Source: Spirochaetaceae bacterium (lineage in GTDB: Bacteria > Spirochaetota > Spirochaetia > DSM-2461). From it: a DNA stretch of 64,000 nucleotides. Positions 30,932 to 53,280 of this stretch are shown here, piece by piece; the first letter of the stretch is position 1, and every line of letters starts with the position of its first letter. A program made the position numbers and the translations under genes. The notes under the pieces are model-generated. The model saw nothing but the letters and a program-made list of their open reading frames with translations. It had not been told where the DNA came from and ran no database searches. Location: assembly GCA_051531975.1 (NCBI GenBank), contig JAOPTT010000002.1, forward strand, positions 409,968 through 473,967, written 5' to 3'.

Positions 30932-30932
30932 A

Positions 30933-32075: not shown

Positions 32076-32076
32076 T

Positions 32077-33294
32077 TTATCCTCTTAGTGCTTCTTCTAA
32101 TGCGTAAGCTCTATCAGCGGTAGAATTTATATATTTTGCAATAAGTGGTGTTAACTTTAAAGTTCCTAAACTTGAAACAGACATTGATGGTATAACCAAT
32201 GCTCCTACAGGAATTTCTGGACCATAACTTGGATCTTTTTCTGTAATAACTTTACCAACACTATAGGTTTTAATCTCACCACCCATTTCGTGGGTAATTA
32301 ACTCGCATACACCCTTTGATGTATAAGCTACATTATTGATTGGATCTAAAACAGGTGTTGCTTTTGAGATATGAACACCAGGTGCTAATGTAACTAAGTC
32401 ACCTAATCTGGCACCTTGTGTTACCCCAGTACCTTCTCCAAGTAGAACGTGGTCTCCAATAATTACTGGTGTTGCTTCAACTGGATCTAATACACCACCA
32501 ATAATTGCTCCAGCACTAATATGACAATCTCTACCAATTTGTGCACAACTTCCCGCTAAGTTTTCAACCATAGTACCAGCACCTACATGGGCACCTACAT
32601 TAGCATAAGCTGGAGGCATAAAAACACAACCTTCCCCTGCATAGGCTCCACGTCTTAAACCTGCAGCTGGAGGAACAACTCTAAAGCCCTCTTTACCAGT
32701 TAACTTTCGTACAGGAAATGTATCTTTATCGGTAAAACCGATATCGGAACTACCATTATAGACAGTAATATTACCCAGGGGGAAACCTAACATTATACCA
32801 TTTTTTACCCACTGATTAGCCTGCCACTTACCATCAATAATCTGGGAAGTTCTTAGATAACCCGCTTCCAATAAGTCCATAACCTTATTAAAAGTTTCTA
32901 ATGCACCATCTCTGTCACTATTTAATTCACCAGCTTTTTTAAGAACTGTGTACTTTTCAACTTTTGCTTCTAAATAAGCAGGTACTTTATAATGAACTAC
33001 TGCTTTTACCCAGCTACCTTCTTTTATATTAAGTAGAAGATCTATATTGGGATGGGCGCCTGGGTTTGTTTTAGCATCTGCAGTATGTTCTGCAAACATC
33101 TCTAAACCTTTATCTGCTAATTTTTTATCAATATTTCCATTATCAAAACCAACTAAATTTGCATACACCTGTAAAGAACCTTTTTTACCATCAACATTTA
33201 GTATTGTTGTAAGAACTTTATCACCTGATACAATATCTATCTTTTCTAAACTATCCACTGGTTTCAGTGTTTCTAATATTTCCTTGAATTTCAT
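32077..33294 (-). CDS. dapD: Tetrahydrodipicolinate N-succinyltransferase with an N-terminal DUF2322-like domain
   Basis: NQWVKNGI, RVVPP, GSCAQIG, GGVLDP hexapeptide repeats; N-terminal GKKGSLQVY...FAEHTADA..NPGAHPNIDLL. Confidence 0.85.
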   Translation of the reverse strand: MKFKEILETLKPVDSLEKIDIVSGDKVLTTILNVDGKKGSLQVYANLVGFDNGNIDKKLADKGLEMFAEHTADAKTNPGAHPNIDLLLNIKEGSWVKAVVHYKVPAYLEAKVEKYTVLKKAGELNSDRDGALETFNKVMDLLEAGYLRTSQIIDGKWQANQWVKNGIMLGFPLGNITVYNGSSDIGFTDKDTFPVRKLTGKEGFRVVPPAAGLRRGAYAGEGCVFMPPAYANVGAHVGAGTMVENLAGSCAQIGRDCHISAGAIIGGVLDPVEATPVIIGDHVLLGEGTGVTQGARLGDLVTLAPGVHISKATPVLDPINNVAYTSKGVCELITHEMGGEIKTYSVGKVITEKDPSYGPEIPVGALVIPSMSVSSLGTLKLTPLIAKYINSTADRAYALEEALRG

Positions 33295-36300: not shown

Positions 36301-39300
36301 AGAGATCGATTTAAGAAATCCTCACTCTTTCGTAGCTCACTGTCTTTTTTCTTCTGATCTGTAATATTCTGGTGTATTCCTACACAGTTACTGGCCGTTC
36401 CATTAGTACCGATATTAACAAGATATCGAACAAAAACATTATCTATTTCACCCTCTCCGTTCTTGACTCTATACTCAAATTCATCAAAATAACTTTCTGA
36501 ACTCTCCATCGCCTTAGTTATTCTAGAATTAAGAATGTGAACATCATCTTCCAATACAAATGTATTTAAAAAAGTTTCTGATGATAATATGTACCCATCA
36601 AAGTCCTCTTTATCTACTTTTAATATACGGTAAAACATATCGTTTAATGTAAACTGGAGAGTAGTTAAGTCTAAGGTCCAATGGGCAAGTTTTGCAGTCT
36701 CTGATGCAAAAACCATCTGCTGATTATAACCCAACAACTCTTTAGTTCTTTTATCTACACTCTCTTCTAGCTCTTCGTTCGATCTTTTAAGATATCTTGT
36801 TGCTTTTTCCCCAATAAAAATACCAAAAAGAGTTGTTGCAATACTTAATAACAGTACAATAGTAAGAATTAGAATCAGTATGTTCCGAAGATTATAATAC
36901 GTAGACATAGCTTCTTTTAAATCTATTTTTGTTGTTATTCCAAACTCATAGATTTCCGACCAATACCAGGTACCATAAACTTCACTGTTTCTATAATCAG
37001 GATACTCTGTAAGTTTAGAATCTAGAGCTGTAGTGAAACTCTTCTTAAGTGAATATTCATCTATATATTCATTGTTTTCGAATCTTGTAGGCGTAATTAT
37101 TTCCCCTACATCATTAAATGCATAGGTTTCTCCAGTAGAGCCAAAATGACCAAGAGAGAATAACCTAGAGAAATTAATATCACTTCTCTCTTCGAAAACT
37201 AATAGGCCAATAATTTTATTACCATCTTTTATTGGTGAGACATAATGAATATCTGAATCGTTTTCAATTGTCCTAGGTGGTATAAATGTTGTATCAAGAT
37301 ATTTATTTGGATTTAGTGTATATCTTTTTCCAACAATAGAACTATCTGATGAGTAGATAGTAGTAGCTCTGGAGTTAATTATATGAAAGTTCTCCCACTT
37401 GGATCTATTTATCTGCATTTTTAGGAAGCTATCAAGGTCACTATATTCACTACTGCTTAACCTATGGTTTAATGAAACTTTTTGTAGATCTTTAACCAGT
37501 TTAATAAGCCTAGAGTTCTCACTATTAATCTCTACTTCAGATAAATTATTGCTAATTATTATATCTAAGGTTTCATATATCGTTTTTAGTTGTAGCTCTA
37601 TTTTTTCTTTTGTTTCTGATAGTGATTTAAAATATATAGAGTTTAATGATGTATAAGTTAATAAAACAACAATTGTAATACTAACCCCTAGAGATATAGC
37701 ACTAAAAACTTTCATTCTGGTAACATTTAGCTTTTCATTATTGAAGTTTTTCTTTTTTACAAAAATTAAGATATTTAATAAAAAGACAATAAATATAATT
37801 ATAGATATTACTAATAGGATTGATCCTAAAGAGTTTTGTCTTGTTACCTCTAATTTGTCTTTTAAAGTTTTATCTTCTAACCATTTTTTATTTAATTTTG
37901 ATAATTCTAAATCTGTAACAACACTCATACTCTTATTTAATAGTGATAAAAGTTCTGGCCAATCCTTTCTAAGACCTAAACTTAAACTAAGTTCGCTATT
38001 ATCAAGTTCAGGCAGAGTCCCACCTTTTTTAAGATTAGATATAGAGTGTTTATTAATATAATAATTAACTACTGGCGAGAGTTCTTGGAGAATATCGGCA
38101 TCACCTTTAGATACGGCTAATATTAATTCTTCGGTATTGGTTATTCCAAGAGATTTTACCCCAGGTAGGTTTTTAATTATCTCTTCACTATATGTCCCTT
38201 TTTGATAAACAAATGTTTTACCTTTAATATCTTCTAAACTTCCAACTATTTGTTCTGTATTCCTTATATATAGAGTGGGATAAAACCCCATATATGGATT
38301 TGTAAAGTTCAAATGTTCTTTTCTAACTTCAGTTTCTAATATATTAAGTATTAAATCGACTTTGTTTTCTAAAATAGCACCTTTAGTTTCATTCCATCGG
38401 TGTTCAGTAGAAAACTGAACCTTAATACCAATAATATTAGCAAGCAGTTTAATATAATCTACAGAGTACCCTTGAGGTCTTCCACTTTTATTAAAATCAA
38501 ACGGGACCCATGTTTTATCATTATGGACAGTTATTACAGGGTTGTTTTCTATCCACCTTTTTTCATCCTGGGATATTTGAATTCTGCTTTCTTCAATTTC
38601 GTTATCAACAAATCCCCATTTTTCACCAATGGAGTTAACTTCATCTTTTGTTAAGCTGTTAATAGCCTTATTTAAAATATCTTCAAATCCTACCCAATCG
38701 GATCTTACACCAACATGGAGTTTTCCAGCATCTAAAGTATCATCCCCTGTTAGGCTCGCAAATTCTATATCACTTATATTATTCTCTTTTAGTAGATAAT
38801 TAATCACAGGTAATCTATCAAGAAAAACATCGGCTTTATCATATAAAACAAAAGTTAAAGCCTCTAGTGCCCCTTGGGCTATTACTAATTCTATTTCAGG
38901 ATAATTCTCCATTAGATAAGTATGTATAGTATATCCCTCTATAACTGCAATAGAACGGCCATTCATATCGGAAAGATCTTTTATTGGTGGTGTTCCCTTT
39001 TTTTTAAAAAGTGCTCTAGGAGTCTTTAAGATGTTATCTGAAAAGTTTAAATAGACTTTTCTATCTTCTGTAATAGCTACACTATGGACAAGGTCTATCT
39101 CTCTATTTTTTACCATTTGTAAAAGTTCAGCCCATGTATAACCATTTACCCACTCTACAGTGATCCCAAGTTTTTTTGCTAAAAGTTCAACATATTCTAT
39201 TGAGTAACCTGTAGGAACTCCATCTCTTACAAAATCAAAAGGAGGCCAATCCATTTCGTTAGAAACTTTAACTACATTGTGATCTTTAAGGAATTGTCTT

Positions 39301-39383
39301 TCCTGAGGAGTTAGCTGTATATCTGAGGCATAAATATTAAAATAGGATAATAAGAAAATTAAACAAAGTAGAACTTTTTTCAC
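33378..39383 (-). CDS. Hybrid sensor histidine kinase (2x SBP_bac_3, Cache-like, 3x PAS, HisKA/HATPase, 2x REC, Hpt)
   Basis: WPPFDF/WVPFDF flytraps, FLANMSHEIRTPMN, GGTGLGL, IDYKMP and MDLQMP, AHTVKG. Confidence 0.93.
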   Translation of the reverse strand: MKKVLLCLIFLLSYFNIYASDIQLTPQERQFLKDHNVVKVSNEMDWPPFDFVRDGVPTGYSIEYVELLAKKLGITVEWVNGYTWAELLQMVKNREIDLVHSVAITEDRKVYLNFSDNILKTPRALFKKKGTPPIKDLSDMNGRSIAVIEGYTIHTYLMENYPEIELVIAQGALEALTFVLYDKADVFLDRLPVINYLLKENNISDIEFASLTGDDTLDAGKLHVGVRSDWVGFEDILNKAINSLTKDEVNSIGEKWGFVDNEIEESRIQISQDEKRWIENNPVITVHNDKTWVPFDFNKSGRPQGYSVDYIKLLANIIGIKVQFSTEHRWNETKGAILENKVDLILNILETEVRKEHLNFTNPYMGFYPTLYIRNTEQIVGSLEDIKGKTFVYQKGTYSEEIIKNLPGVKSLGITNTEELILAVSKGDADILQELSPVVNYYINKHSISNLKKGGTLPELDNSELSLSLGLRKDWPELLSLLNKSMSVVTDLELSKLNKKWLEDKTLKDKLEVTRQNSLGSILLVISIIIFIVFLLNILIFVKKKNFNNEKLNVTRMKVFSAISLGVSITIVVLLTYTSLNSIYFKSLSETKEKIELQLKTIYETLDIIISNNLSEVEINSENSRLIKLVKDLQKVSLNHRLSSSEYSDLDSFLKMQINRSKWENFHIINSRATTIYSSDSSIVGKRYTLNPNKYLDTTFIPPRTIENDSDIHYVSPIKDGNKIIGLLVFEERSDINFSRLFSLGHFGSTGETYAFNDVGEIITPTRFENNEYIDEYSLKKSFTTALDSKLTEYPDYRNSEVYGTWYWSEIYEFGITTKIDLKEAMSTYYNLRNILILILTIVLLLSIATTLFGIFIGEKATRYLKRSNEELEESVDKRTKELLGYNQQMVFASETAKLAHWTLDLTTLQFTLNDMFYRILKVDKEDFDGYILSSETFLNTFVLEDDVHILNSRITKAMESSESYFDEFEYRVKNGEGEIDNVFVRYLVNIGTNGTASNCVGIHQNITDQKKKDSELRKSEDFLNRSLRLAKMGGWEFDIVSSKIFWTDELYSLHDIEKSMMIAEPDRDWVGESIDCYVGEYKQKVSDAFNLAISEGIPYDLTVSFKSWSGREFWARTTGDPIYENGKIVRIAGNFWDIDEQRRADIALEENKKFLESIINNSGNLIYAKDLDGKYMLANKNWELLNDFEPGSTIGKTDEELYGEAGKRYRKVDLEIIEGRHTVRTEEKNIKNGKELAFLSIKFPIYNVSGELTAIAGIATDMTELIDAKENAIEAAKAKSDFLANMSHEIRTPMNAIIGLSHLILKTDLTEKQSDYIGKINNSSNNLLGIINDILDFSKIEAGKLNIESIPLNLHNVFEDLGSIVSEKAKDKGLELIFHVDTKLPINLIGDPLRLGQILLNLTNNAIKFTESGEIMVQAVLESINDKTVIIKYNVKDTGIGLSNKQQNKLFQAFSQADTSTTRKYGGTGLGLSISKRLVELMHGQIGVESIEGEGSNFYFTSELDIAKNQRKEIVPPEITELKILVIDDNENSRDVLVEYITDFSMIIDSAKDGYEALELFKSGKTFDIVLIDYKMPGMNGFETAKKIKEVLGIKKYPKFILVSGFNSEEIDKEIKKNNFDGSIVKPINQSLLLNSILDCYGFKGVTRARRHKSQYPEGFEQVRGALILLTEDNEINQQVAIELLEGEGFYVDIANNGQESVDMCEKKKYDIILMDLQMPVLDGYDATLKIRETFDSKELPIVAMTADAMTGVRHKVMDTGMNDYITKPIETDKLWHSLARWIKKEDRELPTKYTNMDVNHQVGILPNIDGLNVEGGVTRVAGNIKLYKSILQQFIENYSSVSADLKKLLLDDKKEEAIRLAHTVKGISGNIGSAILQEKFKDVEQLLKDDLEIESDLKTVDGILLELIDDINKSGVLVQEEKPNVPLNKISEDQINGKIRSIIGHLNSRKPKPAKDLMVDLLGSEINESQISLIKDAQKLVGRYKMKDAVELLEGYFNN

Positions 39384-42713: not shown

Positions 42714-43850
42714 TTATTGTGCGAAAATAATTTCCTTTAAAACTTCTTTTGCTGGGGAATATTGTAAATTCAAGTCATTTGCCACAGGTTTACATGTTAC
42801 TTTACCTTTAAAAACATTTAATCCTTTTAATAAAGCTTCATTTTCAAGTAGTGCTTTTTGATATCCTTTATTTGCAATTTCAAGAGCATATCTAAGAGTC
42901 ACATTTGTTAATGCAAATGTAGATGTTCTTGATACTGCACCAGGCATATTTGCAACAGCATAATGTAGTACTCCGTGGGTTACATATACTGGAGCATCAT
43001 GTGTTGTAATTCTGTCGATAGTCTCTATTGATCCACCTTGATCAATTGCTACATCTACAATAACAGAACCTTTTGTCATTGTTTTAATCATATCTTCTGA
43101 AACTAACTGAGGAGCTTTAGCACCTGCTACTAAAACAGCACCGATAACAAGGTCAGCTTTTTTAACAGCCTTAGCTATATTAAACTCATTGGACATTAAA
43201 GTATTAATTCTTCCACCGTATATATCATCTAGATAAGCTAGTCGTCTTGGATTATTATCTAATATTGTAACCTGAGCACCTAATCCCATTGCCATTTTTG
43301 CAGCATTAGTTCCAACAACTCCACCACCAATAATTACAACTTCTCCAGCTTCAACTCCCGGAACTCCACCTAAAAGTATACCTTTTCCACCTTCGTGTCT
43401 TTCAAGGAATTGTGCTCCAATCTGTGTAGCCATTCTTCCTGCTACTTCACTCATTGGAACTAGTAGAGGTAATGAACCATCGGCTAATGCTATTGTTTCG
43501 TATGCAATACCAATAACTTTTTTATCTAGAAGGGCTTTAGTTAGTTCTGGTGCTGGTGCTAAATGCAGATAAGTAAAAAGAATCTGACCTTCTTTAAAAA
43601 GATCGTATTCTGCTGGTAGAGGCTCTTTAACTTTCATGATCATATCAGAGATGTCAAATACTTCTTTTGCAGTTTCTTTTATTGAAGCTCCGGCTTTTAT
43701 ATACTCTAAATCCAAAAAACCACTTCCGATTCCAGCATCTTTTTCAATGTAAACCTGATGATTTGATTTAACTAATCCAGAAACACCTGCTGGTGTTATA
43801 GCCACTCTATTTTCGTTGTTTTTGATCTCTTTTGGTACACCAATAATCAT
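42714..43850 (-). CDS. ald: Alanine dehydrogenase
   Basis: [41 protein letters not shown]. Confidence 0.96.
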
Positions 43851-43875: not shown

Positions 43876-44319
43876 TTATATTAAATATGTTTGATTGTCT
43901 TTTTCCGAGTTAAGTATCACCATGGTATTTGTTTTATCTACACCATCAACACTCTTAATTCTATTTAATACTTTTGTTAGGGTATCTGTGTTTTTTGTAA
44001 TTATTTTAATCATGTAATCAAATTCACCAGAGATATAAGAACATGATAAAACATCATCTTCATCATCGATGAAATCTAGAAATGTATGACTTGTCTGAGG
44101 ATTTTTTAAACTTATTAACATAAATGCTGATAACTCTTTTTCTAATTTTACAGGGTCTAATATAGCAGTATATTTTTGTATTACTTTAGAGGTTTCTAAT
44201 TTACGTAACCTTTCTGATACTGCCGAAACCGATAGGTTAACCTCTTTTGCAATATCAGAAGCGGAGATCCTAGCATTAGATTGTAGTAGTCTTAATATGT
44301 TTTTATCAACTTTATCCAT
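43876..44319 (-). CDS. Lrp/AsnC family regulator (AldR-like)
   Basis: [29 protein letters not shown] domain; directly upstream of ald. Confidence 0.9.
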
Positions 44320-44531
44320 AACTAAATTATGCAGCATAAAGCGTGAAGTACGCAACTAATTTAGGCCAAAATAGAGTATTATCCTGTTTATTAAGGCATG
44401 ATAGTAATTTGACAAGAAAAATTACTGTTCAGAACTAAAAAGTATGATGAAACAGAAATTATTAGCTTTTATTTAGCTTAATTCCACTTAAAAGTTAGAC
44501 ATTTTCCCATACTTTTTAGTGGTTATTTCAA

Positions 44532-45002
44532 TTAGTGCTTACCACCAGCAATCATAGAGACAGCATGGGGAAGAATATCTAATAATATATTAGTGCATAA
44601 TGTTACAGCTTTAACTGAGCCGGGGAAATTAATAACCAAAGTACTACCTTTTATTCCTGCATAACCCCGGGATAAAATAGCATTCTTAGTCTCTTTTATA
44701 GATTCTGTTCTAATATACTCAGAGATTCCTGGAGCCTCTTTATCCGCCCAACTTTGACAAACATCCGGGGTAAAATCCCTAGGTCCTAATCCTGTTCCAC
44801 CGGTGGTTAATATTATATCGTAACCGTTGCCATGGTTTAAACTATCCATTAACAAAATTTTACTATCCGGTATTAGTTTTCTAGTAATTTTAACATCTTC
44901 TTTATAGTGTTTTTGTAGTATATTTTCAATTTTTGGCCCTGAAAGGTCTTCATATTCACCTTTAGAGGCCCTATCCGATAGTGTTATTATCAATATATTC
45001 AT
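44532..45002 (-). CDS. mogA: Molybdopterin adenylyltransferase MogA/MoaB family
   Basis: SDRASKGEYEDLSG, TTGGTGLGPRDFTP, SRG, NFPGS. Confidence 0.9.
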   Translation of the reverse strand: MNILIITLSDRASKGEYEDLSGPKIENILQKHYKEDVKITRKLIPDSKILLMDSLNHGNGYDIILTTGGTGLGPRDFTPDVCQSWADKEAPGISEYIRTESIKETKNAILSRGYAGIKGSTLVINFPGSVKAVTLCTNILLDILPHAVSMIAGGKH

Positions 45003-45043: not shown

Positions 45044-45697
45044 TTATACAGTTAGTGCATTTTGTATAAATTTCATAATCTCTTTTATCTGATCATGATA
45101 GTCTTCTGCGAATGTGGAACCTAGGAAGATTTGCATTCTGCCCTTATAATATTCTGATGTAAATGAGAATTGATAGACAACAATTAAGTTATCTAGTAAA
45201 AAACTTAATATTCTGTCATCAATATCTAGATTTATTTGTCCACTATCTCGAGCATTTTTAATAACTTCAAGATACAAATCTCTAGTGACTGTTTCTAAAG
45301 TTCCTGATATTTTTTTAGATATATTTGTTAAACTCTGAGTAGACATATCTAGATATATTTGGTTCAACAGTGGGTATTTTGTAGCATAGTCATGGGCACT
45401 ATAAAACATCTGCTCTACTATACTAAAAAAATCTTTAGAAGTATCTATAGTATCTAAAATAGAGCTTAAAGCGTTAAACATTTTTTCTACTATAGTTAAA
45501 AACAGGTCATCTTTTGAGTCGAAATAACTATATAGAGCACCTATACTTATATTTGCATGTTTTGCAACTTTATTAATACTTGTACCATTAAATCCATTTT
45601 TAGCAAATTCTTCTACTGCGGCAGTTAAAATACCCTCCTGCTTTTCAAGAGGAATATTCTTAAATCTATCTTTATAAAACTTCTGTTCTGTGTCCAT
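45044..45697 (-). CDS. TetR/AcrR family regulator
   Basis: ILTAAVEEFAKNGF.GTSIN.VAK.A.ISIGALYSYF.SK. Confidence 0.93.
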   Translation of the reverse strand: MDTEQKFYKDRFKNIPLEKQEGILTAAVEEFAKNGFNGTSINKVAKHANISIGALYSYFDSKDDLFLTIVEKMFNALSSILDTIDTSKDFFSIVEQMFYSAHDYATKYPLLNQIYLDMSTQSLTNISKKISGTLETVTRDLYLEVIKNARDSGQINLDIDDRILSFLLDNLIVVYQFSFTSEYYKGRMQIFLGSTFAEDYHDQIKEIMKFIQNALTV

Positions 45698-45706
45698 ACG
45701 TCCTAC

Positions 45707-47959
45707 TTAAATTGTATTTCCAAGAGCATAACCAGCTTTAACAGCCTCTAAAACTCTACCTGGTGTAAATGAATCACCAATGTTAAAAATTTCTTTAGAT
45801 ATTCTCTCTTTTGTTAGCTTATAATATAGATCATCATTAGGTTTTGCTCCAGTAGCTAATATAATTAGATCAGATTTTAATTCTTGGTCGGAATAGTTCT
45901 GTTTTACCTTTTTTGCAAATGGATTTATAATATTTTCAGGAATTAAAGGAGTCCAAGTATTAATAGGACTTGGTACTGTTTTAGACATATTACGACTAAC
46001 AATAATAGACCCATCTTTTACCTCTTTTAAAGTTGTACAATTAAAGAGATTTACACCTTTTTTATTAAGGTAATATATTAAACTATGCCTATTAGAAGTA
46101 CAGGTTTTTGGCATTAAATGATCACCCATTTCTACAATAGTTACTTTTTTACCATACTCATAACTTAACATATGGGCAACTTCACATCCTACATCTGCTC
46201 CACCAATAACTGTGTAATTATTAAACTTTGAATATTTATCTGGGTTATTAAGATATTCCATTGCTGGAATAACATTTTTATTATTAATTCCTTTAACAGG
46301 AGGAACTAGCGCTGTGGTCCCGGAACATGTAACAAGAACATCAGGTTTTAGTTCTTTTAACATATTTGAATCTGCAATGGTATTAAACATAGTTTTAATA
46401 TTATTTACCTTTATCTCGTTATTTAAGTAGGTTACATAGTTTTTTATCTCGTATTTTATTTTAGGTACACTACCACCTAGGAGGCTTCCACCGGCGATAT
46501 CATTTGAGTCTATAATTGTAACATCATGTCCCCGTTTATCCAGTGTTAGGGCTAAAATAACTCCAGCAGGACCAGCTCCAACTACTACTATTTTCTTTCT
46601 GTTTTCTGTTAGTTTTAAGTCGTTTTGATATACATCTTCAAAGGCAGTTCGTGGGTTTACTGCACAATGTGGGTGCCCACCTGAATCTAACTGGCCTAAA
46701 CAACCCTCGTGGTCTCCAATACATGGAATAATTCTATCAACTTCACCTTTATAAACTTTATTTGGCCAAAATGGGTCTGCTAATAGAGGTCTAGCTAACA
46801 TTACTAAATCGCATTTATTTTTCCGTAGTGCATCTTCTGCAACATCTGGAAATCCTAGTTTCCCCACACCAACTATTGGTACATTTTGTCCTTTATTTGT
46901 TGTAATACCTTCATCTGCAAAATGTTTTTTTACTAAATTTGCAACTTCTAGATAGAGACCTGGAGGCATTGTATTTGGTGGATGTGGGAACCACCAGTTA
47001 TCGTATCCACCTAAGTCTACATCAAACATATCAACACCAGCTTTTACTAGGTTTTTCATGTAGTCTAGGGTCATTTCAACAGTTCTCTCTTTTGCAAACT
47101 TTTTAAGAACTGGCTCTGTTTTCATTAATTCGCCATAGGTCGCTTGTAGAATTAAAGAGAGGTCGATTCTATAATAGATAGGAAAGTGAACTCCTACTCT
47201 TTTTCTGATCTCTTTTATCATATCAATACCGAAGTTCTGATAATAACTGTAACGGCCTAATTTACGTCTATTGTAAGCAGGGTCTGTCATCTGTTCAATT
47301 AGATATCCAGAGTGACCATGAAGATAGACTCCATCAATTTGTAACTCTTTAGCATCTATAGCAGCCTGCCCTGTTTTTTTAATAATTTTTTTGCACTCAA
47401 AGTCTGTTATTGGTCTACAAGGAATTTGAGGTATGTAAAAGTTAGGATTCCAGGATGATGATATAGGCATCTTAAATTTCTTAGTTAGACACTCTGGGTT
47501 TCCAACTCTCCCCATTCCTGGGGCTAACTGGATGAAAAACTTAGCTCCATGGGCATGACAGCCCTCTGCTATAGTTCTCCAACCAGAATATGTTGATCTA
47601 TGGGTATCAATTCTAGGAAAGATTCCTGTGGCATCAACATCCCCGTAGGATGGGTCGTCGTTTACACTAACAGGGATCATACCTGTAGTAATTAGACCTG
47701 CACCACCCTTTGCCCGTTCAACAAAATAAGAGATAAGTTTATTACCTGGTTTACCCATTTCGTCAGCCATATTAACATTACCCATAGGCCCCATAACTAT
47801 TCTATTTTTTAACTTAACACTATTTATTGTGATAGGTTCAAACATAGAGGTATATGGTTTAAGGTTATCTGACATTAATCCCTGTTTCATTTTAGAATCG
47901 TCATCAAACCATGTGTTATAACTATCTACTAACGTGCTTATCTCTTTTGCAAAACTCAT
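45707..47959 (-). CDS. FMN/FAD/Fe-S ene-reductase (enoate reductase/BaiH/DCR family)
   Basis: LKNRIVMGPM, HGHSGYL, ARPLLADP, CIGDHEGC..C.VNP, VVGAGPAG. Confidence 0.88.
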   Translation of the reverse strand: MSFAKEISTLVDSYNTWFDDDSKMKQGLMSDNLKPYTSMFEPITINSVKLKNRIVMGPMGNVNMADEMGKPGNKLISYFVERAKGGAGLITTGMIPVSVNDDPSYGDVDATGIFPRIDTHRSTYSGWRTIAEGCHAHGAKFFIQLAPGMGRVGNPECLTKKFKMPISSSWNPNFYIPQIPCRPITDFECKKIIKKTGQAAIDAKELQIDGVYLHGHSGYLIEQMTDPAYNRRKLGRYSYYQNFGIDMIKEIRKRVGVHFPIYYRIDLSLILQATYGELMKTEPVLKKFAKERTVEMTLDYMKNLVKAGVDMFDVDLGGYDNWWFPHPPNTMPPGLYLEVANLVKKHFADEGITTNKGQNVPIVGVGKLGFPDVAEDALRKNKCDLVMLARPLLADPFWPNKVYKGEVDRIIPCIGDHEGCLGQLDSGGHPHCAVNPRTAFEDVYQNDLKLTENRKKIVVVGAGPAGVILALTLDKRGHDVTIIDSNDIAGGSLLGGSVPKIKYEIKNYVTYLNNEIKVNNIKTMFNTIADSNMLKELKPDVLVTCSGTTALVPPVKGINNKNVIPAMEYLNNPDKYSKFNNYTVIGGADVGCEVAHMLSYEYGKKVTIVEMGDHLMPKTCTSNRHSLIYYLNKKGVNLFNCTTLKEVKDGSIIVSRNMSKTVPSPINTWTPLIPENIINPFAKKVKQNYSDQELKSDLIILATGAKPNDDLYYKLTKERISKEIFNIGDSFTPGRVLEAVKAGYALGNTI

Positions 47960-47960
47960 T

Positions 47961-48479
47961 CTATTTAATATCCTTGTAATATTCTTTAAACTTTGTGGCT
48001 TTCATAACTTTACCAGCTATTCCACCTAACCACATAATTATAAAGTAGTTTAATTTTAGATCCATTAATTCAACAAGATTACCATCAGGGTCTTTTAGAA
48101 AGATCCATTGGCTACCGGCAGTCTCCTGGGGTTCTATTAAGAAGTTTAACTCATCTTTATAAGTATTAAACCATTTTGGTACATTTCTAACATCTAATGT
48201 AAAATGGGTAGGTCCTGGTTTGTGCCAAAGTGGATGACTAGATTCTAATTGATTTTTAAACTCAAAGATCTCAATTACTTGACCTTTTGGAGCTCGCAAA
48301 AAACCTAATCTTACACTGTTATCTTCTAACTCATAGAGAGGAAACAGACTTTTTACAGTTTCTGAATCTAAAGTTTGCTCATCTATTAATAAAAAACCAA
48401 AATATTTATGATACCAGCTTACAGATTTTTCGAAATTTGAAACTGTTAAACCTATATGACTAACTGAACGTATTTTCAT
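47961..48479 (-). CDS. VOC/glyoxalase family protein
   Basis: SHIGLTV, EIFEF, THF, LKDPDGNLVEL. Confidence 0.88.
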   Translation of the reverse strand: MKIRSVSHIGLTVSNFEKSVSWYHKYFGFLLIDEQTLDSETVKSLFPLYELEDNSVRLGFLRAPKGQVIEIFEFKNQLESSHPLWHKPGPTHFTLDVRNVPKWFNTYKDELNFLIEPQETAGSQWIFLKDPDGNLVELMDLKLNYFIIMWLGGIAGKVMKATKFKEYYKDIK

Positions 48480-48487
48480 GTTTCCTC

Positions 48488-49270
48488 CTATTTTGCTAAA
48501 CTTCCAACTAGAACCATATACTCACCTAGTTGTGCCCCGTATTCTGGAGCTCCTTCCATAACTAACTTCTGCTTAATTGTAGCTTCTATCATGTCATCGA
48601 TTTCCATTAAAATCCCTAAAGCACTATCTGTAGAGTCAAATCTCATAGTAAAAAATGGCTTAGATCGTTTGTATATTCCTCTAGAAGCTTTAGATTTTCC
48701 AGCTTTTAATCTAATAAATGCTGATAGATCTTCATCCCCTTCAACTCTCCAGGAATAAACTCTATCTGGACTCTTTTTTATCCAGTTAGAAATAGCAGGG
48801 TGTCCAGCTTTGTTAAGTGAACTAATACCAGAAGATAGAAGGTAGAACATTAACTTAACTAAAAGACGTTTTGTCTCTTCATCTTCTGGTGGTTTCTCCA
48901 TACCTAATAGCTTCGCCATCTTCATTAACGCGCCTAAAGATGATATTAATAACCCTACATTTTTAAGCCCTATAATCTTAGGTAGTTTACTACTAGTTCC
49001 TTTAAAAAAGCCGTTAAAAAGAGCAATTGTTTTAAACTCTAACTCTAATGTTGGCTCATCTATAACACCTTTTACAACAGTCCATTCCCCCTCTTCTATT
49101 ACAAAGTGGGTTCCATGTTTAATACCTTCATCTAGGGCACTAATCTGCACTGTAGCAGTAGTTTTTGCAAACTTTTTAGTTAGTTTTTCATCGTTATTTA
49201 CAACTACTTTAACTAAGGGAAGTACTGCATTTAAAAATATAGTATTGGCATATTTTTCCTGTTCAGTCAT
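48488..49270 (-). CDS. Tandem SCP2-like putative lipid-binding protein
   Basis: Two repeats of the SCP2 pattern (FVIEEG...G...PTLELEF; IRLKAG...PFFTMRF...KLVMEG). Confidence 0.6.
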   Translation of the reverse strand: MTEQEKYANTIFLNAVLPLVKVVVNNDEKLTKKFAKTTATVQISALDEGIKHGTHFVIEEGEWTVVKGVIDEPTLELEFKTIALFNGFFKGTSSKLPKIIGLKNVGLLISSLGALMKMAKLLGMEKPPEDEETKRLLVKLMFYLLSSGISSLNKAGHPAISNWIKKSPDRVYSWRVEGDEDLSAFIRLKAGKSKASRGIYKRSKPFFTMRFDSTDSALGILMEIDDMIEATIKQKLVMEGAPEYGAQLGEYMVLVGSLAK

Positions 49271-49272
49271 TT

Positions 49273-50280
49273 TTATACCTCATCTTCCCAGTCGTCGTCC
49301 TCTTCAAAATCTTTACCCATTATCTCTCTAACAGAGTCAACAATTCCATTAGTATCATAACCGTAATGATTCATCAGATCCTCGTGTAGTCCAATAATTG
49401 AGAATGTATCTGGAACACCTAACCTCTTAAATCCACAAGCTTTACCACTCTCAGCTAGTACTTCTGCGACAGCACTACCTAAACCACCAATAACATTGTG
49501 GTCTTCTACTGTAATTATTCGTCTAGTCTCCTGAACTGCTTTTAAAATTGCATCTTTATCTATTGGTTTAATAGTATGCATATTAATTACTCTGATTTTA
49601 AGTCCATCTACACTGTCTAATATTTTAGCTGCTTCTGCTGCCTGATATACTCCAGAACCACAAGCTATTATAGTTAGATCGGTACCATCGTTAATTTCAA
49701 TTGCTTTACCAATTTCAAATTCGTAGTCACCATTGTCGTATAGCCTATTATCAAAACCTCTGTTAATTCTTAAATACATAGGGCCTTTTGTATGGTAAGC
49801 AGCATGTACAGCTTTAGCAGTTTCTGTTCCGTCTGCAGGAACTATAACAGTTAAGTTTGCCATAGTTCTCATAATACCAATATCCTCGGTACAGTGGTGG
49901 GTTGAACCAGCCTGGCCAAAAGAGAGACCAGCGTGGGTTGCGATCATTTTAACATTTAAATTTTGGTAACATATATCTGTATGAACCTGATCCAATGCTC
50001 TCATAGAGGTAAATACTGCAAAAGTAGATACAAATGGAACTAGACCTGCGCTGGCCATACCAGCTGCTACACCAAACATATTCTGTTCAGCTATTCCGAG
50101 ATTAAAAAATCGATCTGGGAATTTTTCACCTAAAACACCTATCTTAGTAGATTTACCTAAGTCAGCTGTTAAACCAACTAAATCGTCGTGGTCAGTTGCT
50201 AAGTCTACTAATGTTTTTCCATAAACTTCTGCTGTTGATAAGTCTTTTGTATCAAAGACTGTATAAGTTAATCCTGCCAT
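49273..50280 (-). CDS. Split transketolase, C-terminal (Pyr + C) subunit
   Basis: ADLGKST, GIAEQN, STFAVF, TIKPID, VEDH..GGLG. Confidence 0.92.
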   Translation of the reverse strand: MAGLTYTVFDTKDLSTAEVYGKTLVDLATDHDDLVGLTADLGKSTKIGVLGEKFPDRFFNLGIAEQNMFGVAAGMASAGLVPFVSTFAVFTSMRALDQVHTDICYQNLNVKMIATHAGLSFGQAGSTHHCTEDIGIMRTMANLTVIVPADGTETAKAVHAAYHTKGPMYLRINRGFDNRLYDNGDYEFEIGKAIEINDGTDLTIIACGSGVYQAAEAAKILDSVDGLKIRVINMHTIKPIDKDAILKAVQETRRIITVEDHNVIGGLGSAVAEVLAESGKACGFKRLGVPDTFSIIGLHEDLMNHYGYDTNGIVDSVREIMGKDFEEDDDWEDEV

Positions 50281-51167
50281 TATTTTACACCCTCCATTCT
50301 TTTAGCGTGGAAAGTATCTAAACTGTCCTGAGCTTCTTTTAATTTATCTGAATCAAGGCCACCATAATGCCATAAATAACTATCTTCCATAAAATTAACA
50401 CCACAACCTTTAATAGTATGTGCAATAATTACAACAGGTTTTTCAGTTGCAACTTTTGCATACTCTATCGCTTCGTTAATCTCTTCTATATTGTTTCCAT
50501 TTATCTCTTTAACATCGAATCCAAAGGCTGCCCATTTATCTGCAAACGGTTCAAGTTTCATAATATCCTCTGTTTTACCGTCCATCATGCATTTGTTTCT
50601 ATCAACAATAGTAATAACATTGGTGGTATTAAAGTTAGAAATTGCCATTGCAGCTTCCCAAATAACACCTTCGTCACACTCTCCGTCCCCTACTAAACAG
50701 TATGTTTTATAATCTTTTTTTAAGTTTCTAGCTGCTAAACCAAGGCCTAAGGATATTGGAAGCCCATGACCTAAAGACCCAGTTGATGCGTCTACTCCAG
50801 GTACTTTCGTAGAGTCTAAATGCATACCTAATTTTGAACCTGTGTGGTTATACTCTTTTAATAGTTCTTTATCAAAATATCCTTTATCTGCTAAAACTGG
50901 TGCATAACCTACACCACAATGTCCTTTACTTAATATAAACCGATCCCGGTCTTCCCATTTAGGATTATTAGGATCAATATTCATATGTTTATGATAAAGT
51001 ACTGTCATAATATCCATTGCACTTAATGAACCACCTACATGACCACTTCCGGCCCATACAATTGTTTTTAAACAGAGGTGTCGTAGTTCGTGTGCTTTCT
51101 CATTAAGTCGTATTAATTCCTGCGCTTTTTCTGTAATTTTAATTTCTTCCTGTTTTTCTAATACCAT
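50280..51167 (-). CDS. Split transketolase, N-terminal (PP) subunit
   Basis: GHVGGSLS, RDRFILSKGH, STGSLGHG, GDGECDEG...N ThDP motif. Confidence 0.93.
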   Translation of the reverse strand: MVLEKQEEIKITEKAQELIRLNEKAHELRHLCLKTIVWAGSGHVGGSLSAMDIMTVLYHKHMNIDPNNPKWEDRDRFILSKGHCGVGYAPVLADKGYFDKELLKEYNHTGSKLGMHLDSTKVPGVDASTGSLGHGLPISLGLGLAARNLKKDYKTYCLVGDGECDEGVIWEAAMAISNFNTTNVITIVDRNKCMMDGKTEDIMKLEPFADKWAAFGFDVKEINGNNIEEINEAIEYAKVATEKPVVIIAHTIKGCGVNFMEDSYLWHYGGLDSDKLKEAQDSLDTFHAKRMEGVK

Positions 51168-51182
51168 TATTTCCTCCTAAAA

Positions 51183-52430
51183 CTATGAATGTCTGGCTTT
51201 TACTACTTTAAATGCCTCGTCGGCTACTTCTATAGTGAATTTAACATCTTCATCTGAAATTGCAGTGTTCATAAATTGGTTATGGTGATTTGTAAAATAA
51301 ACCCCACGTTTAACACACTCTGCTACCCACTCCTGGTGTAACATCAGAGAGTCGTCGTTTGTAATTCTCATGAACCACATTGATGGATGTCCAGATATTT
51401 TTAAGTCGAAGCCGTACTTTTTACCAGCTGCAACCAATCCATCAGTAATTTTTGTACCTGTTTTATACATTAAAGCTGGTGCATCTAGATCCTTTAGTTT
51501 TTTCATAGTTGCAAGACCAGCAGCAAAAGGTACAGCTGACATCCAGTAACTACCTGTGTACATAATTCCAGCAGCAGTATCTTTTAACTCGTCTGTTCCA
51601 CAAAGGGCACTAAAGTTCCACCCGTTACCAAGTGCTTTACAAAAACACATTAAGTCCGCTTTAAAACCAAAGTAGTGGTCAGAACCTTTAAGATCCAGTC
51701 TAAATCCACACCGTACATCATCAATTGCTAATACTATTCCATTATCTGTGCAAAGTTTTCTTACCTGATTCCAGAAGTCCTCTGCTGGCATTTGGTTATC
51801 GTCAAATATTGGGTGGTAATAGGGAGTAGACATTAAACAAGCAATTTCACCTTTGTTATCTTTTATTACTTGTTTTAATTGTTCGATATTATTCCACTCA
51901 ACCATTATATTATTAGTAATATCCTCTTCTATAATCCCTGGGTGTCCTAGTTTTTGTGTCCAAGGTGCAACTCCGTGGTATCCACCTTTAAATAAAATTG
52001 TTTTTTTCCGACCTGTATGAGCCTTAGCTATCATTACTGCAAAACTTGTTACGTCTCCACCGTTTTTAGCAAAAAATGCCCAGTCCGCCATAGCAACTGT
52101 ATCTACTAAAGTTTCAGCCATTTCAACTAATTTAAAAGATGGGGAAGTTGTACAGTTACCTATATCCATCTGAACCTTTACAGCATTGTCTACATCTGGG
52201 TCGTTATACCCTAGAACGTTTGGCCCATAGGCACACATGTAGTCTAAAAATTTATTTCCATCAACATCCCAAAAGTATGCACCCTCTGCACGGCTTGAGA
52301 AAAATGGAAATGCATCTACTGGGATAAAACAACTCTCAGCAGGTCCTAAGTGACCATAAACCCCTGTAGGGATTACCTTTAAAGCTCTATTAAATAGCTC
52401 GCTACTTTTATTATATTTATATGTCTGCAT
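51183..52430 (-). CDS. Class-III aminotransferase, FumI (aminopentol aminotransferase)-like
   Basis: VIPTGVYGH, DYMCAYGPN, ADWAFFAKNG, YHGVAPW, DDVRCGFR, CKALGNG, TGSYWMSAVP, HHNQF. Confidence 0.82.
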   Translation of the reverse strand: MQTYKYNKSSELFNRALKVIPTGVYGHLGPAESCFIPVDAFPFFSSRAEGAYFWDVDGNKFLDYMCAYGPNVLGYNDPDVDNAVKVQMDIGNCTTSPSFKLVEMAETLVDTVAMADWAFFAKNGGDVTSFAVMIAKAHTGRKKTILFKGGYHGVAPWTQKLGHPGIIEEDITNNIMVEWNNIEQLKQVIKDNKGEIACLMSTPYYHPIFDDNQMPAEDFWNQVRKLCTDNGIVLAIDDVRCGFRLDLKGSDHYFGFKADLMCFCKALGNGWNFSALCGTDELKDTAAGIMYTGSYWMSAVPFAAGLATMKKLKDLDAPALMYKTGTKITDGLVAAGKKYGFDLKISGHPSMWFMRITNDDSLMLHQEWVAECVKRGVYFTNHHNQFMNTAISDEDVKFTIEVADEAFKVVKARHS

Positions 52431-52439
52431 TAGTTCCTC

Positions 52440-53192
52440 CTATAGGTATGCTGGCACTTGGCCCAGTATTTTATTCATATTGTCTAACATTGGGAGAAAC
52501 CCCTTAAGTTTTAATGTTTTAGTAGCTACACAGGTATAAGAATCAATATTCCCATTTAACAGGTCACCTGCTGTTTTCATGTCTTCGAAAGTCATAGCTG
52601 CTCTTACATTCTGTGGAATACCTTTTGTTGCTGTTAAAAAACCAGCTTTGGCATTTAGACAGACTGCAGGCCCCTCTTTTATAGTTACCGATATGTTTCC
52701 ATCAGGTATTCGACCACCATTTAATTTACCCATAGGATCAGTATTACCAATTTCAGCTAAAGCAAAAAATGCTGTATAAGCTGTTAGTGTTGTATTTATT
52801 TTTGCATAGTGTTTGTCTTTTAAAAGTTCTGGAGTTGGTTTTAAATAATAACTAAGTTTATCAGTTAAAACTGTGAAGTCTTTTAACAAGAAGTTAAGTT
52901 TTGTAAAACCTTTAACTGGGATTGGATTTGCTTCCCCGTCTACCATCTTATTAAAGTGTTCAGGGGAAGTTAGAATTAACTTAACATTATTAGGATGTTT
53001 ACCTTTCTCAAATGTACATTTCCCATCTTTGAACCTTAAAATACCTTTTGGCCCATTTTTAACAGATATCTGCATTCTAATATTTTTATCTTTTATTAGA
53101 TCCTTCATCTCCAAATCCATTTCACACAAATCTTCAAGATTTCTAAGAACTGCATATAAATTAATATTAGCTAATGTTAATTTATCCTTCAC
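52440..53192 (-). CDS. Tandem SCP2-like putative lipid-binding protein
   Basis: Two SCP2-like halves; GTG start with GGAGG RBS; resembles 48488..49270. Confidence 0.6.
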   Translation of the reverse strand: MKDKLTLANINLYAVLRNLEDLCEMDLEMKDLIKDKNIRMQISVKNGPKGILRFKDGKCTFEKGKHPNNVKLILTSPEHFNKMVDGEANPIPVKGFTKLNFLLKDFTVLTDKLSYYLKPTPELLKDKHYAKINTTLTAYTAFFALAEIGNTDPMGKLNGGRIPDGNISVTIKEGPAVCLNAKAGFLTATKGIPQNVRAAMTFEDMKTAGDLLNGNIDSYTCVATKTLKLKGFLPMLDNMNKILGQVPAYL

Positions 53193-53226
53193 CTTTTTCC
53201 TCCATAATTTACTTTATACATGTAGC

Positions 53227-53280
53227 GAGCATTTGCTCACCTTCAGGAAATAGTTTAACACCTGTTTGCTTATTTGGCAA
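53227..53280 (-). promoter_or_regulatory. Sigma70 promoter and candidate TetR operator of the 45-53 kb operon
   Basis: TTGCCA-N17-TAAACT with extended TG; GAGCA-N2-TGCTC palindrome at 53227-53238. Confidence 0.65.

Follow-up and report, generated by a model that had tools for sequence, protein, structure and literature searches.

The 64,000 nt stretch of DNA analysed here (the window) is from a spirochaete, Spirochaetaceae bacterium (positions 409,968 to 473,967 of contig JAOPTT010000002.1, GenBank assembly GCA_051531975.1), and includes a compact set of eight co-oriented genes. Five of these encode a FumI-like aminotransferase (AT), the two subunits of a split transketolase (TK), here called TKN and TKC, and two proteins made up of sterol carrier protein 2 (SCP2) folds in tandem, here called SCP2a and SCP2b. 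Comparison of related loci revealed that what is conserved is SCP2a-AT, a unit of two genes, to which a three-gene unit, TKN-TKC-SCP2b, is usually joined, and the two together are referred to below as the module. In our judgement the chances are about even that the locus is used for the cytoplasmic catabolism or detoxification of lipophilic 2-amino-1,3-diols, meaning sphingoid long-chain bases or near analogues of them, via a pyruvate-dependent deamination followed by a thiamine diphosphate (ThDP)-dependent cleavage to a fatty aldehyde and a C2 unit. Cleavage of sphingoid 2-amino-1,3-diols by a transaminase and a TK had been proposed in an earlier note made from the sequence of the window alone, and the FumI-like AT, the altered TK, the lipid-carrier folds and the co-conservation of their genes all speak for the core of that proposal, though the enal reduction that it included is optional at best. 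Papers are cited here for the passages available from them.

Conservation and distribution of the module

Two sets of related loci were used. A genome scan with the AT of the window, taking one genome per species, supplied the best 80 of 132 relatives (57-77 % identity), and a metagenome scan seeded with the AT of an actinobacterial locus (L029) supplied the best 80 of 586 relatives. Neighbouring genes were counted by tblastn with the proteins of the window, and a locus entered a denominator only if its flank reached 900 nt or more on the upstream side or 3.2 kb or more on the downstream side. The gene immediately preceding the AT is SCP2a in 72 of 73 genome loci and in 62 of 63 from metagenomes. 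TKN-TKC-SCP2b follows immediately on the AT in 51 of 67 genome and 16 of 40 metagenome loci; a further four genome loci, where it is divergent, and six metagenome loci have it elsewhere. SCP2a-AT was often found without any TK, and small genomes (1.6-2.1 Mb) of the Mycobacteriaceae family have stand-alone SCP2a-AT pairs. With the core found again in Bacillota, Spirochaetota and Actinomycetota, chance is far from sufficient to explain the arrangement. The earlier note had named co-conservation beforehand as a test by which its proposal could be refuted, and the genes were found together across phyla.

The genome loci are from Clostridia (Christensenellaceae, Oscillospiraceae, 'Eubacterium' and Lutispora), spirochaetes, Mobilicoccus and a metagenome-assembled genome (MAG) of the Mycobacteriaceae. 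Carriers are mostly gut or digester anaerobes together with the marine spirochaete, and include sediment anaerobes; many of the record titles are of human, rabbit, chicken, deer or rumen gut MAGs. Two carriers are cultured, namely Lutispora saccharofermentans m25 (L005), which has all eight genes, and Mobilicoccus caccae NBRC 113072 (L020). The full set of eight in the order of the window was found at four loci (L003, L005, L013 and L159). The earlier note had treated all eight genes as a unit, and this holds for SCP2a-AT and TKN-TKC-SCP2b but not for the last three genes (encoding a VOC protein, an ene-reductase and a TetR regulator), which are present in a minority of loci.

The flanks of the module vary between lineages and are mostly housekeeping genes (TrpRS, pyruvate kinase, IF3, L20, topoisomerase, DprA), so that the module behaves like a transferable unit complete in itself. 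Searches of three congeneric genomes did not find it, but it is present at approximately 60 % identity in another genus of the same family (L187). The best match to the module in the window is in a clostridial MAG (L003), at 59-84 % identity per protein.

More distant ATs from spirochaete relatives (37-40 % identity) keep an open reading frame (ORF) of approximately 250 aa immediately upstream; of the five regions examined, three have an SCP2a-like ORF at this place (22-33 % identity, covering just part of the query in two). Four such loci, L182 to L185, are from the spirochaete relatives G025, G022, G011 and G006; the first two were scanned and both have a DUF819 membrane protein beside the AT, with an SDR and a Ca-dependent phosphatidylinositol-specific phospholipase C-like protein also near in L182 and a TetR in L183. 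In five TK-less loci of Christensenellaceae type, SCP2a-AT is immediately preceded by a gene for a protein of approximately 1960-2080 aa (L049:3202-9195, L056:2965-9198, L078:3145-9021, L154:1087-7149 and L171:1099-7035), none of which has a match in Pfam or the Protein Data Bank (PDB). A small zinc-ribbon protein and a protein of approximately 350-475 aa precede the long protein in three of the five.

The aminotransferase is closest to FumI

When the AT was compared to all PDB chains, the top match was 6hbs, the 'aminopentol aminotransferase' FumI of Sphingopyxis sp. MTA144 (315 bits, E 6.2e-93), in an alignment that spans residues 9-410 of 415 and includes the pyridoxal 5'-phosphate (PLP) lysine. 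Glutamate-1-semialdehyde aminomutases are next among its PDB relatives, at no more than 155 bits, and the match of its class-III motifs to FumI, as claimed earlier, is thus confirmed. The class-III PLP lysine and the aspartate for the pyridine nitrogen are present, and in 39 sequences D237 and D238 are invariant and K265 is nearly so. With hydrolysed fumonisin B1 (HFB1) as its substrate, FumI passes the amino group at C2 to pyruvate, producing 2-keto-HFB1 and alanine; pyruvate is the preferred acceptor and 2-oxoglutarate is not used (PMC3136697). By homology to FumI, the AT of the module would catalyse a pyruvate-dependent deamination of a long-chain 2-amino-alcohol at C2.

The relationship to FumI also bears on which lipid that might be. 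The chemistry and direction could be as proposed with some other lipophilic 2-amino-alcohol as the substrate, the TK cleaving the resulting alpha-hydroxyketone, and candidates are hydrolysed fumonisin or AAL backbones, 1-deoxysphingoid bases, threo bacterial or marine aminodiols and sulfonolipid (capnine-type) bases. We take the aminopentol substrate of FumI to have the 2S,3S configuration. A 3S centre would match the canonical preference of TKs (PMC13663882), and FumI itself acts on a 1-deoxy aminopentol (PMC3136697). One actinobacterial metagenome locus (L168) has a type B carboxylesterase beside TetR-SCP2a-AT-MFS, as FumD accompanies FumI, and the SCP2a-AT pair is frequent in soil-type high-GC metagenome contigs. 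However, fumonisin-type compounds are no obvious common substrate for the gut and digester anaerobes and the marine spirochaete that make up most of the carriers, and a ceramidase gene adjacent to SCP2a-AT in L029 points to sphingoid bases. We regard a substrate of this other kind as unlikely, but it deserves serious consideration.

The transketolase has lost sugar-binding residues

The closest PDB entries to the two TK subunits are those of the Carboxydothermus split TK (TKN to 6yak, E 2.5e-75; TKC to 6yaj, E 2e-79). They score 260 and 263 bits with the NCBIfam transketolase equivalog, for which the cut-off is 488, a miss that is expected because each subunit spans half of the model. TKN includes the ThDP/metal motif GDG-x28-N, the catalytic glutamate (Glu65) is kept, and the four active-site histidines (in SGH, KGH, MH and WH; H43, H83, H116 and H267 of TKN) are invariant in all 63 module copies. 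Conservation of the histidines that bind the C1 hydroxyl (SGH and WH) makes a 1-hydroxy ketol a likelier substrate than a 1-deoxy methyl ketone or a sulfonate, and so counts against several of the other lipids listed above.

In HMMER alignments with human TK and the split TK, the TKC of the window has Ala17 at the position of human Arg318, where the split TK also has an arginine, and Gln123-Ala124 at Glu423-Asp424, while Ser44, His116 and Arg174 keep the equivalents of human Ser345, His416 and Arg474. In Escherichia coli numbering we take these positions to be Arg358, Asp469, Ser385, His461 and Arg520, presumably the phosphate site and the reader of the acceptor 2-hydroxyl. The Asp site is Ala in all 61 module TKCs and the Arg site is Ala, Thr, Met or Ser in 57 of the 61. 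The four that keep Arg share a distinct pattern, RTEHHA…, and, going by the pattern rather than by locus ids, are most likely from the four divergently arranged loci of Christensenellaceae type. At least five further TK loci are present in the genome from which the window comes, searched as 29 contigs totalling 5.46 Mb. Three of the paralogues were compared with confidence and each has Arg, and the Asp site is Asp in the split TK on C14 and the full-length TK on C2 and Asn in the split TK on C9.

In TKs, Asp469 forms hydrogen bonds with sugar hydroxyls, determines which stereoisomer is selected and is the key position for engineering towards new substrates (PMC11387542), and a wild-type split TK with native equivalents of D469L/L382A accepts aromatic and aliphatic aldehydes, split TKs keeping their S-selectivity (PMC13663882). 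As the catalytic residues are intact and the Asp and Arg sites are changed, the TK of the module appears to be catalytically competent but with a pocket that no longer expects a 2-hydroxy, phosphorylated chain. It is predicted to work like a TK and, lacking the full sugar-phosphate site, should not be filed as the TK of the pentose phosphate pathway. Judged on signature columns, on which its status as a subfamily rests, it is a putative specialised paralogue without the residues used for hydroxylated and phosphorylated sugars. Further residues are specific to the module, in TKN W38, G114, V122, H134 (in a GxLGQG motif), M194, F217, Y268 (beside the catalytic histidine) and D272, and in TKC H129 among others, with a series of bulky hydrophobics (F121, I103, I113, I172, F176, F284 and I296).

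A related arrangement was seen in two large high-GC genomes of the Mycobacteriaceae family, where a distant FumI-like AT (38-43 % identity) comes directly after a split TK, without an SCP2 gene (L099:9373-12427 and L100:9341-12392). In these TKCs the Arg358 site is Ala and the Asp469 site Tyr, and an AsnC regulator and an enoyl-CoA hydratase are near the AT-TK genes.

Two tandem-SCP2 proteins accompany the enzymes

SCP2b has no match in Pfam or NCBIfam. It is a distant paralogue of SCP2a (hhalign probability 98.7 %, E 1.6e-16, 17 % identity over 248 columns), and AlphaFold models, built from alignments of 39 (SCP2a) and 27 (SCP2b) sequences taken from related loci, have pLDDT values of 95.6 and 92.6, respectively, and show a tandem pair of SCP2 folds in both proteins. 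Ranks 1-46 of the Foldseek matches listed are taken up entirely by SCP2 domains, namely alkylsulfatase C-terminal domains, sterol carrier proteins and UbiJ, and VIA-align gave Z scores of 11.1 for residues 135-258 of SCP2b and 9.9 for residues 10-122. The models, the structural matches and the profile alignment thus agree with the earlier observation that two SCP2-like proteins flank the enzymes, and both proteins are predicted to have lipid-carrier folds. The tandem-SCP2 family is small, with 255 of 1.84 billion cluster representatives matching at E ≤0.001, 161 at 1e-10 and 50 at 1e-30, many of them fragments, and its neighbours in the ESM Atlas are clusters of 'hypothetical protein', mostly from Bacillota.

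SCP2b is the more conserved of the two (mean column identity 63 % vs 48 % for SCP2a), with 43 invariant columns in 27 sequences, many of them polar. In the loci examined it was never found beside an AT without a TK, but was always coupled to the TK. In a natural fusion of 601 aa that came from a profile search (P0137), residues 9-317 match the TKC of the window (43 % identity, E 4e-86), including the signature without Arg and Asp, and residues 355-581, past a Ser/Thr/Pro linker, match SCP2b (25 % identity, E 2e-19). Two further TKC-SCP2b fusions (P0151 and P0152) are 79 % identical to P0137 over 99 % of its length. Hence, on Rosetta-stone grounds, SCP2b appears to work on the TK. No fusion of SCP2a to AT was found, and word-index searches for longer fused forms of SCP2a or SCP2b also found none, though this is weak evidence.

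A 784 aa metagenomic protein (P0268), 44 % identical to P0137, has a TKC of the 'THH, no Asp469' type fused to an aldehyde dehydrogenase (PF00171) domain, a domain combination that hints that the aldehyde is a product in this group of TKs.

The conserved SCP2-fold partners also bear on the possibility, which we consider improbable, of a small hydrophilic substrate, an amino-polyol or a derivative of an amino-sugar (serinol, an aminobutanetriol-like compound or an aminodeoxy-ketose), with the SCP2 folds as scaffolds or regulators. In its favour, polar ketoses are the usual substrates of TKs, the phosphate site keeps three of its four residues, and so many invariant, often polar columns in SCP2b would be unusual for a passive lipid carrier. 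Against this, the enzymes have two conserved SCP2-fold partners, of which one also occurs fused to the TK, every module TKC has lost the Asp used to bind sugar hydroxyls, the residues specific to module TKCs are largely bulky hydrophobics, the nearest characterised AT (FumI) acts on a C20 lipid, and no sugar kinase or sugar transporter is conserved nearby.

Organization of the operon

The eight genes are in the minus strand and run from 53192 to 45044 in the order SCP2a, AT, TKN, TKC, SCP2b, VOC, ene-reductase and TetR (Table 1), with successive gaps of 9, 15, -1 (an overlap), 2, 8, 1 and 9 nt in the ORF listing. The tight packing and common orientation reported in the earlier note are evident from the ORF coordinates, and the identity of the products from Pfam for seven of the eight and from hhalign and the structure model for the fifth.

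Table 1. Features of the operon and adjacent genes, in window coordinates
Feature	Position	Strand	Basis or remark
Promoter-like site TTGCCA-17-TAAACT, TG before -10	53252..53280	-	Consensus match only, 5' of SCP2a gene
SCP2a, 250 aa tandem SCP2-fold protein	52440..53192	-	PF02036 residues 20-91 (N-terminal half), 23.5 bits vs cut-off 21.3
AT, FumI-like class-III (GSAM-like) PLP aminotransferase	51183..52430	-	PF00202 Aminotran_3, E 2e-36
TKN, split TK N-terminal (PP-domain) subunit	50280..51167	-	PF00456 Transketolase_N, E 3e-48
TKC, split TK Pyr + C domain subunit	49273..50280	-	PF02779 E 7.5e-41, PF02780 E 1.2e-29
SCP2b, 260 aa tandem SCP2-fold protein	48488..49270	-	Structure model and hhalign to SCP2a
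VOC/glyoxalase-fold protein (accessory)	47961..48479	-	PF00903 E 2.9e-13; NCBIfam matches weak, all below cut-offs
FadH/BaiCD-type OYE + FAD/NAD(P) ene-reductase (accessory)	45707..47959	-	PF00724 E 7e-38, PF07992 E 3.4e-28
TetR-family regulator (accessory)	45044..45697	-	PF00440 E 1.8e-16
Lrp/AsnC regulator	43876-44355	-	AsnC domains; outside operon
Alanine dehydrogenase	42714-43850	-	PF01262, PF05222; outside operon

A GGAGG sequence lies 8 nt ahead of the GTG start of the SCP2a gene. Matches to promoter-like sequences were not enriched in the region (49, compared to 45.4 +/- 7.3 in shuffled sequences) and the terminator scan was likewise not above chance; the reading as a single operon is based on the tiny gaps. 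A search for inverted repeats upstream of the operon returned only an AT-rich 20 nt palindrome. A short inverted repeat, GAGCA-AA-TGCTC (53227-53238, minus strand), follows the promoter-like -10 and precedes the SCP2a ribosome-binding site; it is a possible TetR operator, yet short enough to have arisen by chance. The GC content of the operon (0.35-0.36) is slightly above that of the flanks (0.30-0.32), and none of the eight proteins reaches the curated cut-off of any NCBIfam model. The genome encodes FlaA (E 2e-69), a mark of spirochaetes, and the sole sequencing run that contains the stretch is labelled marine metagenome; no RNA run containing it was found, and the one RNA run listed shares next to none of its words.

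A gene for a MoaB/Mog-like (MoCF_biosynth) protein (44532-45002, minus strand) follows in the same orientation, 41 nt past the TetR gene; it was not seen beside the module in the annotated related loci, where no tblastn search with it was made. Further downstream are a gene for a 2001 aa hybrid sensor kinase (33381-39383, minus strand) with two periplasmic SBP_bac_3 domains as well as PAS, HisKA/HATPase and receiver domains and, beyond it, a run of lysine/diaminopimelate-type genes (28587-33294).

Accessory genes and neighbours

Homologues of the last three products of the operon were found by tblastn beside few of the related modules, namely, out of 80 loci in the genome set and 80 in the metagenome set, VOC in 8 and 2, an orthologue of the ene-reductase in 4 and 3, and TetR in 16 and 9, respectively. 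Among NCBIfam models the TetR is closest to the Bacillus-type FadR (55.6 bits, cut-off 200). The ene-reductase matches 2,4-dienoyl-CoA reductase (PDB 1ps9, E 4e-46) and scores 279 bits with the BaiCD model of NCBIfam, for which the cut-off is 825. Its Fe-S motif (residues 413-432) reads C-x2-D-x3-C-x11-C in place of the usual four-cysteine motif, a feature shared by six orthologues (L003, L005, L013, L067, L159 and L160), while the less similar reductase of L154 keeps the usual cysteines. The family suits the reduction of a 2-enal, as the earlier note had suggested, but with these three genes in a minority of loci the step is optional at best.

That BaiCD is the best NCBIfam match of the ene-reductase, and that SCP2 is a sterol-carrier fold, raises the question of whether the substrate could be a steroid. 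DesAB, the steroid-17,20-desmolase, is a split transketolase that acts on cortisol and is encoded in a des operon together with a 20-alpha-HSDH, and a DesAB-like cleavage of a steroid or other ketol side chain may be envisaged, with the reductase and SCP2 proteins acting on steroids and the AT incidental. However, the AT is the most constant partner whereas the reductase is rare, the BaiCD score falls far below the cut-off, and no hydroxysteroid dehydrogenase is conserved nearby. This explanation is very improbable and was set aside on the pattern of gene conservation.

Alanine dehydrogenase (AlaDH) is another recurrent neighbour. In the window an Lrp-AlaDH pair is 1.2 kb downstream of the operon, and AlaDH adjoins the module in eight or nine of 80 genome loci, in at least three layouts (directly after the AT, directly before SCP2a, and as Lrp-AlaDH-MerR-module). 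Its recurrence fits a pyruvate/alanine couple, and the AlaDH and Lrp/AsnC genes of the window are a probable recycling partner for it.

Other neighbours are found in fewer loci. L029, in the Mycobacteriaceae MAG, reads TetR-SCP2a-AT-MFS-neutral/alkaline ceramidase (PF04734, E 1.1e-140; NCBIfam neutral ceramidase E 3.9e-178, below the cut-off), and tblastn of 80 genome loci, 80 metagenome loci and eight actinobacterial regions found a ceramidase adjacent in L029 only. The order TetR-SCP2a-AT-MFS is repeated in the high-GC metagenome loci L138, L164 and L168, the last continuing with an FMN reductase, the carboxylesterase mentioned above and an NmrA-like protein. An SDR is present in L094 and L107, an AKR in L008, an Fe-dependent alcohol dehydrogenase (ADH) in three loci and an aldehyde:ferredoxin oxidoreductase in L154, and a D-2-hydroxyacid dehydrogenase follows the module or is close by in five loci.

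A proposed pathway and its alternatives

In the proposed pathway, SCP2a would extract the amphiphilic base and present it to the AT, which would pass the C2 amine to pyruvate to give a neutral 1,3-dihydroxy-2-ketone and alanine. AlaDH would regenerate pyruvate, with release of NH3 and NADH. The split TK, served by SCP2b, would then cleave the C2-C3 bond and release a long-chain aldehyde while the C2 ketol (glycolaldehyde) stays on the ThDP, a step suggested by the active-site signature and the TKC-SCP2b fusion. The bound C2 unit would be passed to an acceptor that, since three of the four phosphate-site residues are kept, is probably still a sugar phosphate. Optional roles, put forward more weakly, are that the ene-reductase may saturate the 2-enal arising from 4-unsaturated bases (sphingosine), that the VOC protein may epimerise or isomerise the ketodiol, a C3 epimerase being only an idea, and that TetR may provide induction. 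Where only SCP2a-AT is present, deamination alone could neutralise the antimicrobial amine, as with FumI.

A more specific form of this proposal, to which we give somewhat less than even credence, is that many gut, digester, skin-type and marine bacteria have a breakdown of sphingoid bases free of kinase, ATP and sphingosine 1-phosphate (S1P) lyase, using a tandem-SCP2 chaperone, a FumI-like AT and a TK with Asp469 changed to Ala and Arg358 lost, which is assisted by a second tandem-SCP2 protein occasionally fused to it, and delivering the C2 ketol into the pentose phosphate pool.

Several observations weigh against catabolism of sphingoid-type 1,3-diols. By Cahn-Ingold-Prelog reasoning, D-erythro bases give a 3R ketodiol. 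As the four TKN histidines, on which this geometry depends, are all invariant and the donors and products of canonical and split TKs are 3S (PMC13663882), an inverted 3R preference is not predicted, and the stereochemical caveat raised in the earlier note stands. The VOC protein, a candidate epimerase, is present in only 8 of the 80 genome loci; SCP2b may be more than a carrier, for example setting the C3 configuration so that the TK takes ketodiols derived from D-erythro bases. The known substrates of FumI are 1-deoxy 2-amino-3-ols rather than 1,3-diols (PMC3136697). The ceramidase link is one locus among approximately 175 examined, and ceramidases are common in the family of L029, being present in 125 of 201 genomes and in four of five other SCP2a-AT carriers, so that co-occurrence at the level of the genome is uninformative and the adjacency is suggestive only. 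With the L029 ceramidase as the query, no match was found in the genome of the window, and domain searches of the window found no ADH and, as the earlier note had said, no aldehyde dehydrogenase. Finally, both reactions are reversible, and the direction of the pathway is inferred from the accessory genes. With the stereochemistry opposite, the FumI substrates 1-deoxy and the direction dependent on accessory genes, the alternatives keep real weight.

Reversibility leads directly to the opposite direction, namely the synthesis of aminodiol lipids without serine palmitoyltransferase, in which the TK would join a fatty aldehyde to a ketol donor (hydroxypyruvate or a ketose phosphate), the AT would aminate the product with alanine and the SCP2 proteins would shuttle lipids. 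This is precisely how an engineered TK-transaminase cascade produces 2-amino-1,3-diols (PMC5813273), and the anisomycin pathway has a natural TK and aminotransferase pair (PMC11387542). Many gut genomes, among them those of Clostridia, hold the module without a regulator amid housekeeping genes, which is a further point against catabolism as it would also suit a constitutive biosynthetic role, and the D-2-hydroxyacid dehydrogenase found at five loci could make hydroxypyruvate. However, no gene for an N-acyltransferase or ceramide synthase-like protein, a head-group transferase or a reductase that forms fatty aldehydes is conserved beside the module, and the accessories that do recur (ceramidase, carboxylesterase, MFS, TetR or MerR, AlaDH and ADH) are catabolic in character. 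The frequent occurrence of SCP2a-AT without a TK makes sense for deamination but not for synthesis, and a related TKC is fused to an aldehyde dehydrogenase. Synthesis is hence rather unlikely in our view, less so than a small polar substrate but more so than a different lipid.

Comparison with known systems

The FumD/FumI system of Sphingopyxis sp. MTA144 is the nearest to the AT step, as FumI is the closest of the solved structures and removes the C2 amine of a long-chain sphinganine analogue with pyruvate (PMC3136697). A type B carboxylesterase is also found in a single related locus, L168. However, the passages available from the fum-cluster papers, which reach as far as FumD/E/F/G, name no SCP2 partner and no transketolase, the substrates of FumI are 1-deoxy, the carriers of the module are mostly anaerobes and the window has no carboxylesterase.

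Engineered TK-transaminase cascades share the two enzyme classes and the type of intermediate, 1,3-dihydroxy-2-ketone/2-amino-1,3-diol (PMC5813273), and substitutions at Asp469 open TKs to non-hydroxylated aldehydes (PMC13663882, PMC11387542). They are synthetic, run in the direction of synthesis on short polar substrates and include no lipid carriers, whereas the pairing in the module is natural and the change from Asp to Ala is fixed (61/61). The anisomycin enzymes AniP (TK), AniQ (aminotransferase) and AniN (SDR) likewise include a natural, conserved TK and aminotransferase pair that works on non-phosphorylated substrates, but the pathway is biosynthetic and, as described in the passages available, AniP is a single chain of approximately 600 aa without the His-rich motif, its substrates are aromatic keto acids, and no SCP2 protein is involved (PMC11387542). 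In the module the His motif is intact.

In the eukaryotic route, sphingosine kinase phosphorylates the base using ATP and S1P lyase, a PLP enzyme, then performs a retro-aldol cleavage in which the amine stays on the C2 fragment. The formal outcome is shared with our proposal, in that C2-C3 cleavage gives a C2 fragment and hexadecanal or 2-hexadecenal, but the operon has no kinase or lyase domain, and in the proposed pathway the amine would leave first and ThDP would effect the cleavage. The logic of a proposed deamination, recycling and ThDP-dependent step is also that of taurine:pyruvate aminotransferase, alanine dehydrogenase and Xsc, where a pyruvate-dependent deamination with recycling by AlaDH is followed by a ThDP enzyme acting on the carbonyl product. 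That system differs in using a small, sulfonated substrate and a ThDP enzyme other than a transketolase, and in having no lipid carriers.

The SphR regulon of Pseudomonas aeruginosa (sphBCD and a ceramidase) also serves bacterial removal of antimicrobial sphingoid bases, with a periplasmic FMN oxidoreductase, a cytochrome c and the PLP aldolase-like SphD, according to the passages available, and shares no families with the module; the product of sphingosine metabolism in Pseudomonas is described there as still unidentified (PMC11398299).

None of the systems compared joins a lipid-type transaminase, a split TK lacking Asp469 and tandem-SCP2 partners. No description of an AT, TK and SCP2 module, or of sphingoid catabolism of this kind, was found in the literature covered, though most subscription journals are outside that coverage and absence is not proven. 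Known kinds of enzymes and a known logic appear here in a new combination, and possibly in a new pathway.

Significance

Sphingoid bases are barrier lipids with antimicrobial action and also precursors in signalling, and large amounts are set free from the sphingolipids of diet and host. We know of no established route by which anaerobic commensals dispose of them. The module is found in many MAGs that, by their record titles, are from animal or human gut, and could affect luminal sphingolipid pools. If the proposed pathway is correct, it would include the first lipid-cleaving transketolase and give long-chain bases from host and diet their first defined bacterial fate in strict anaerobes. The range of transketolases would widen to lipids, the tandem-SCP2 proteins would become a new class of enzyme-coupled lipid chaperones, and natural split TKs lacking Asp469, together with lipid-accepting transaminases, would be at hand for biocatalysis with amino-alcohols and for detoxifying mycotoxins. 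With two carriers in culture, the hypothesis can be tested directly.

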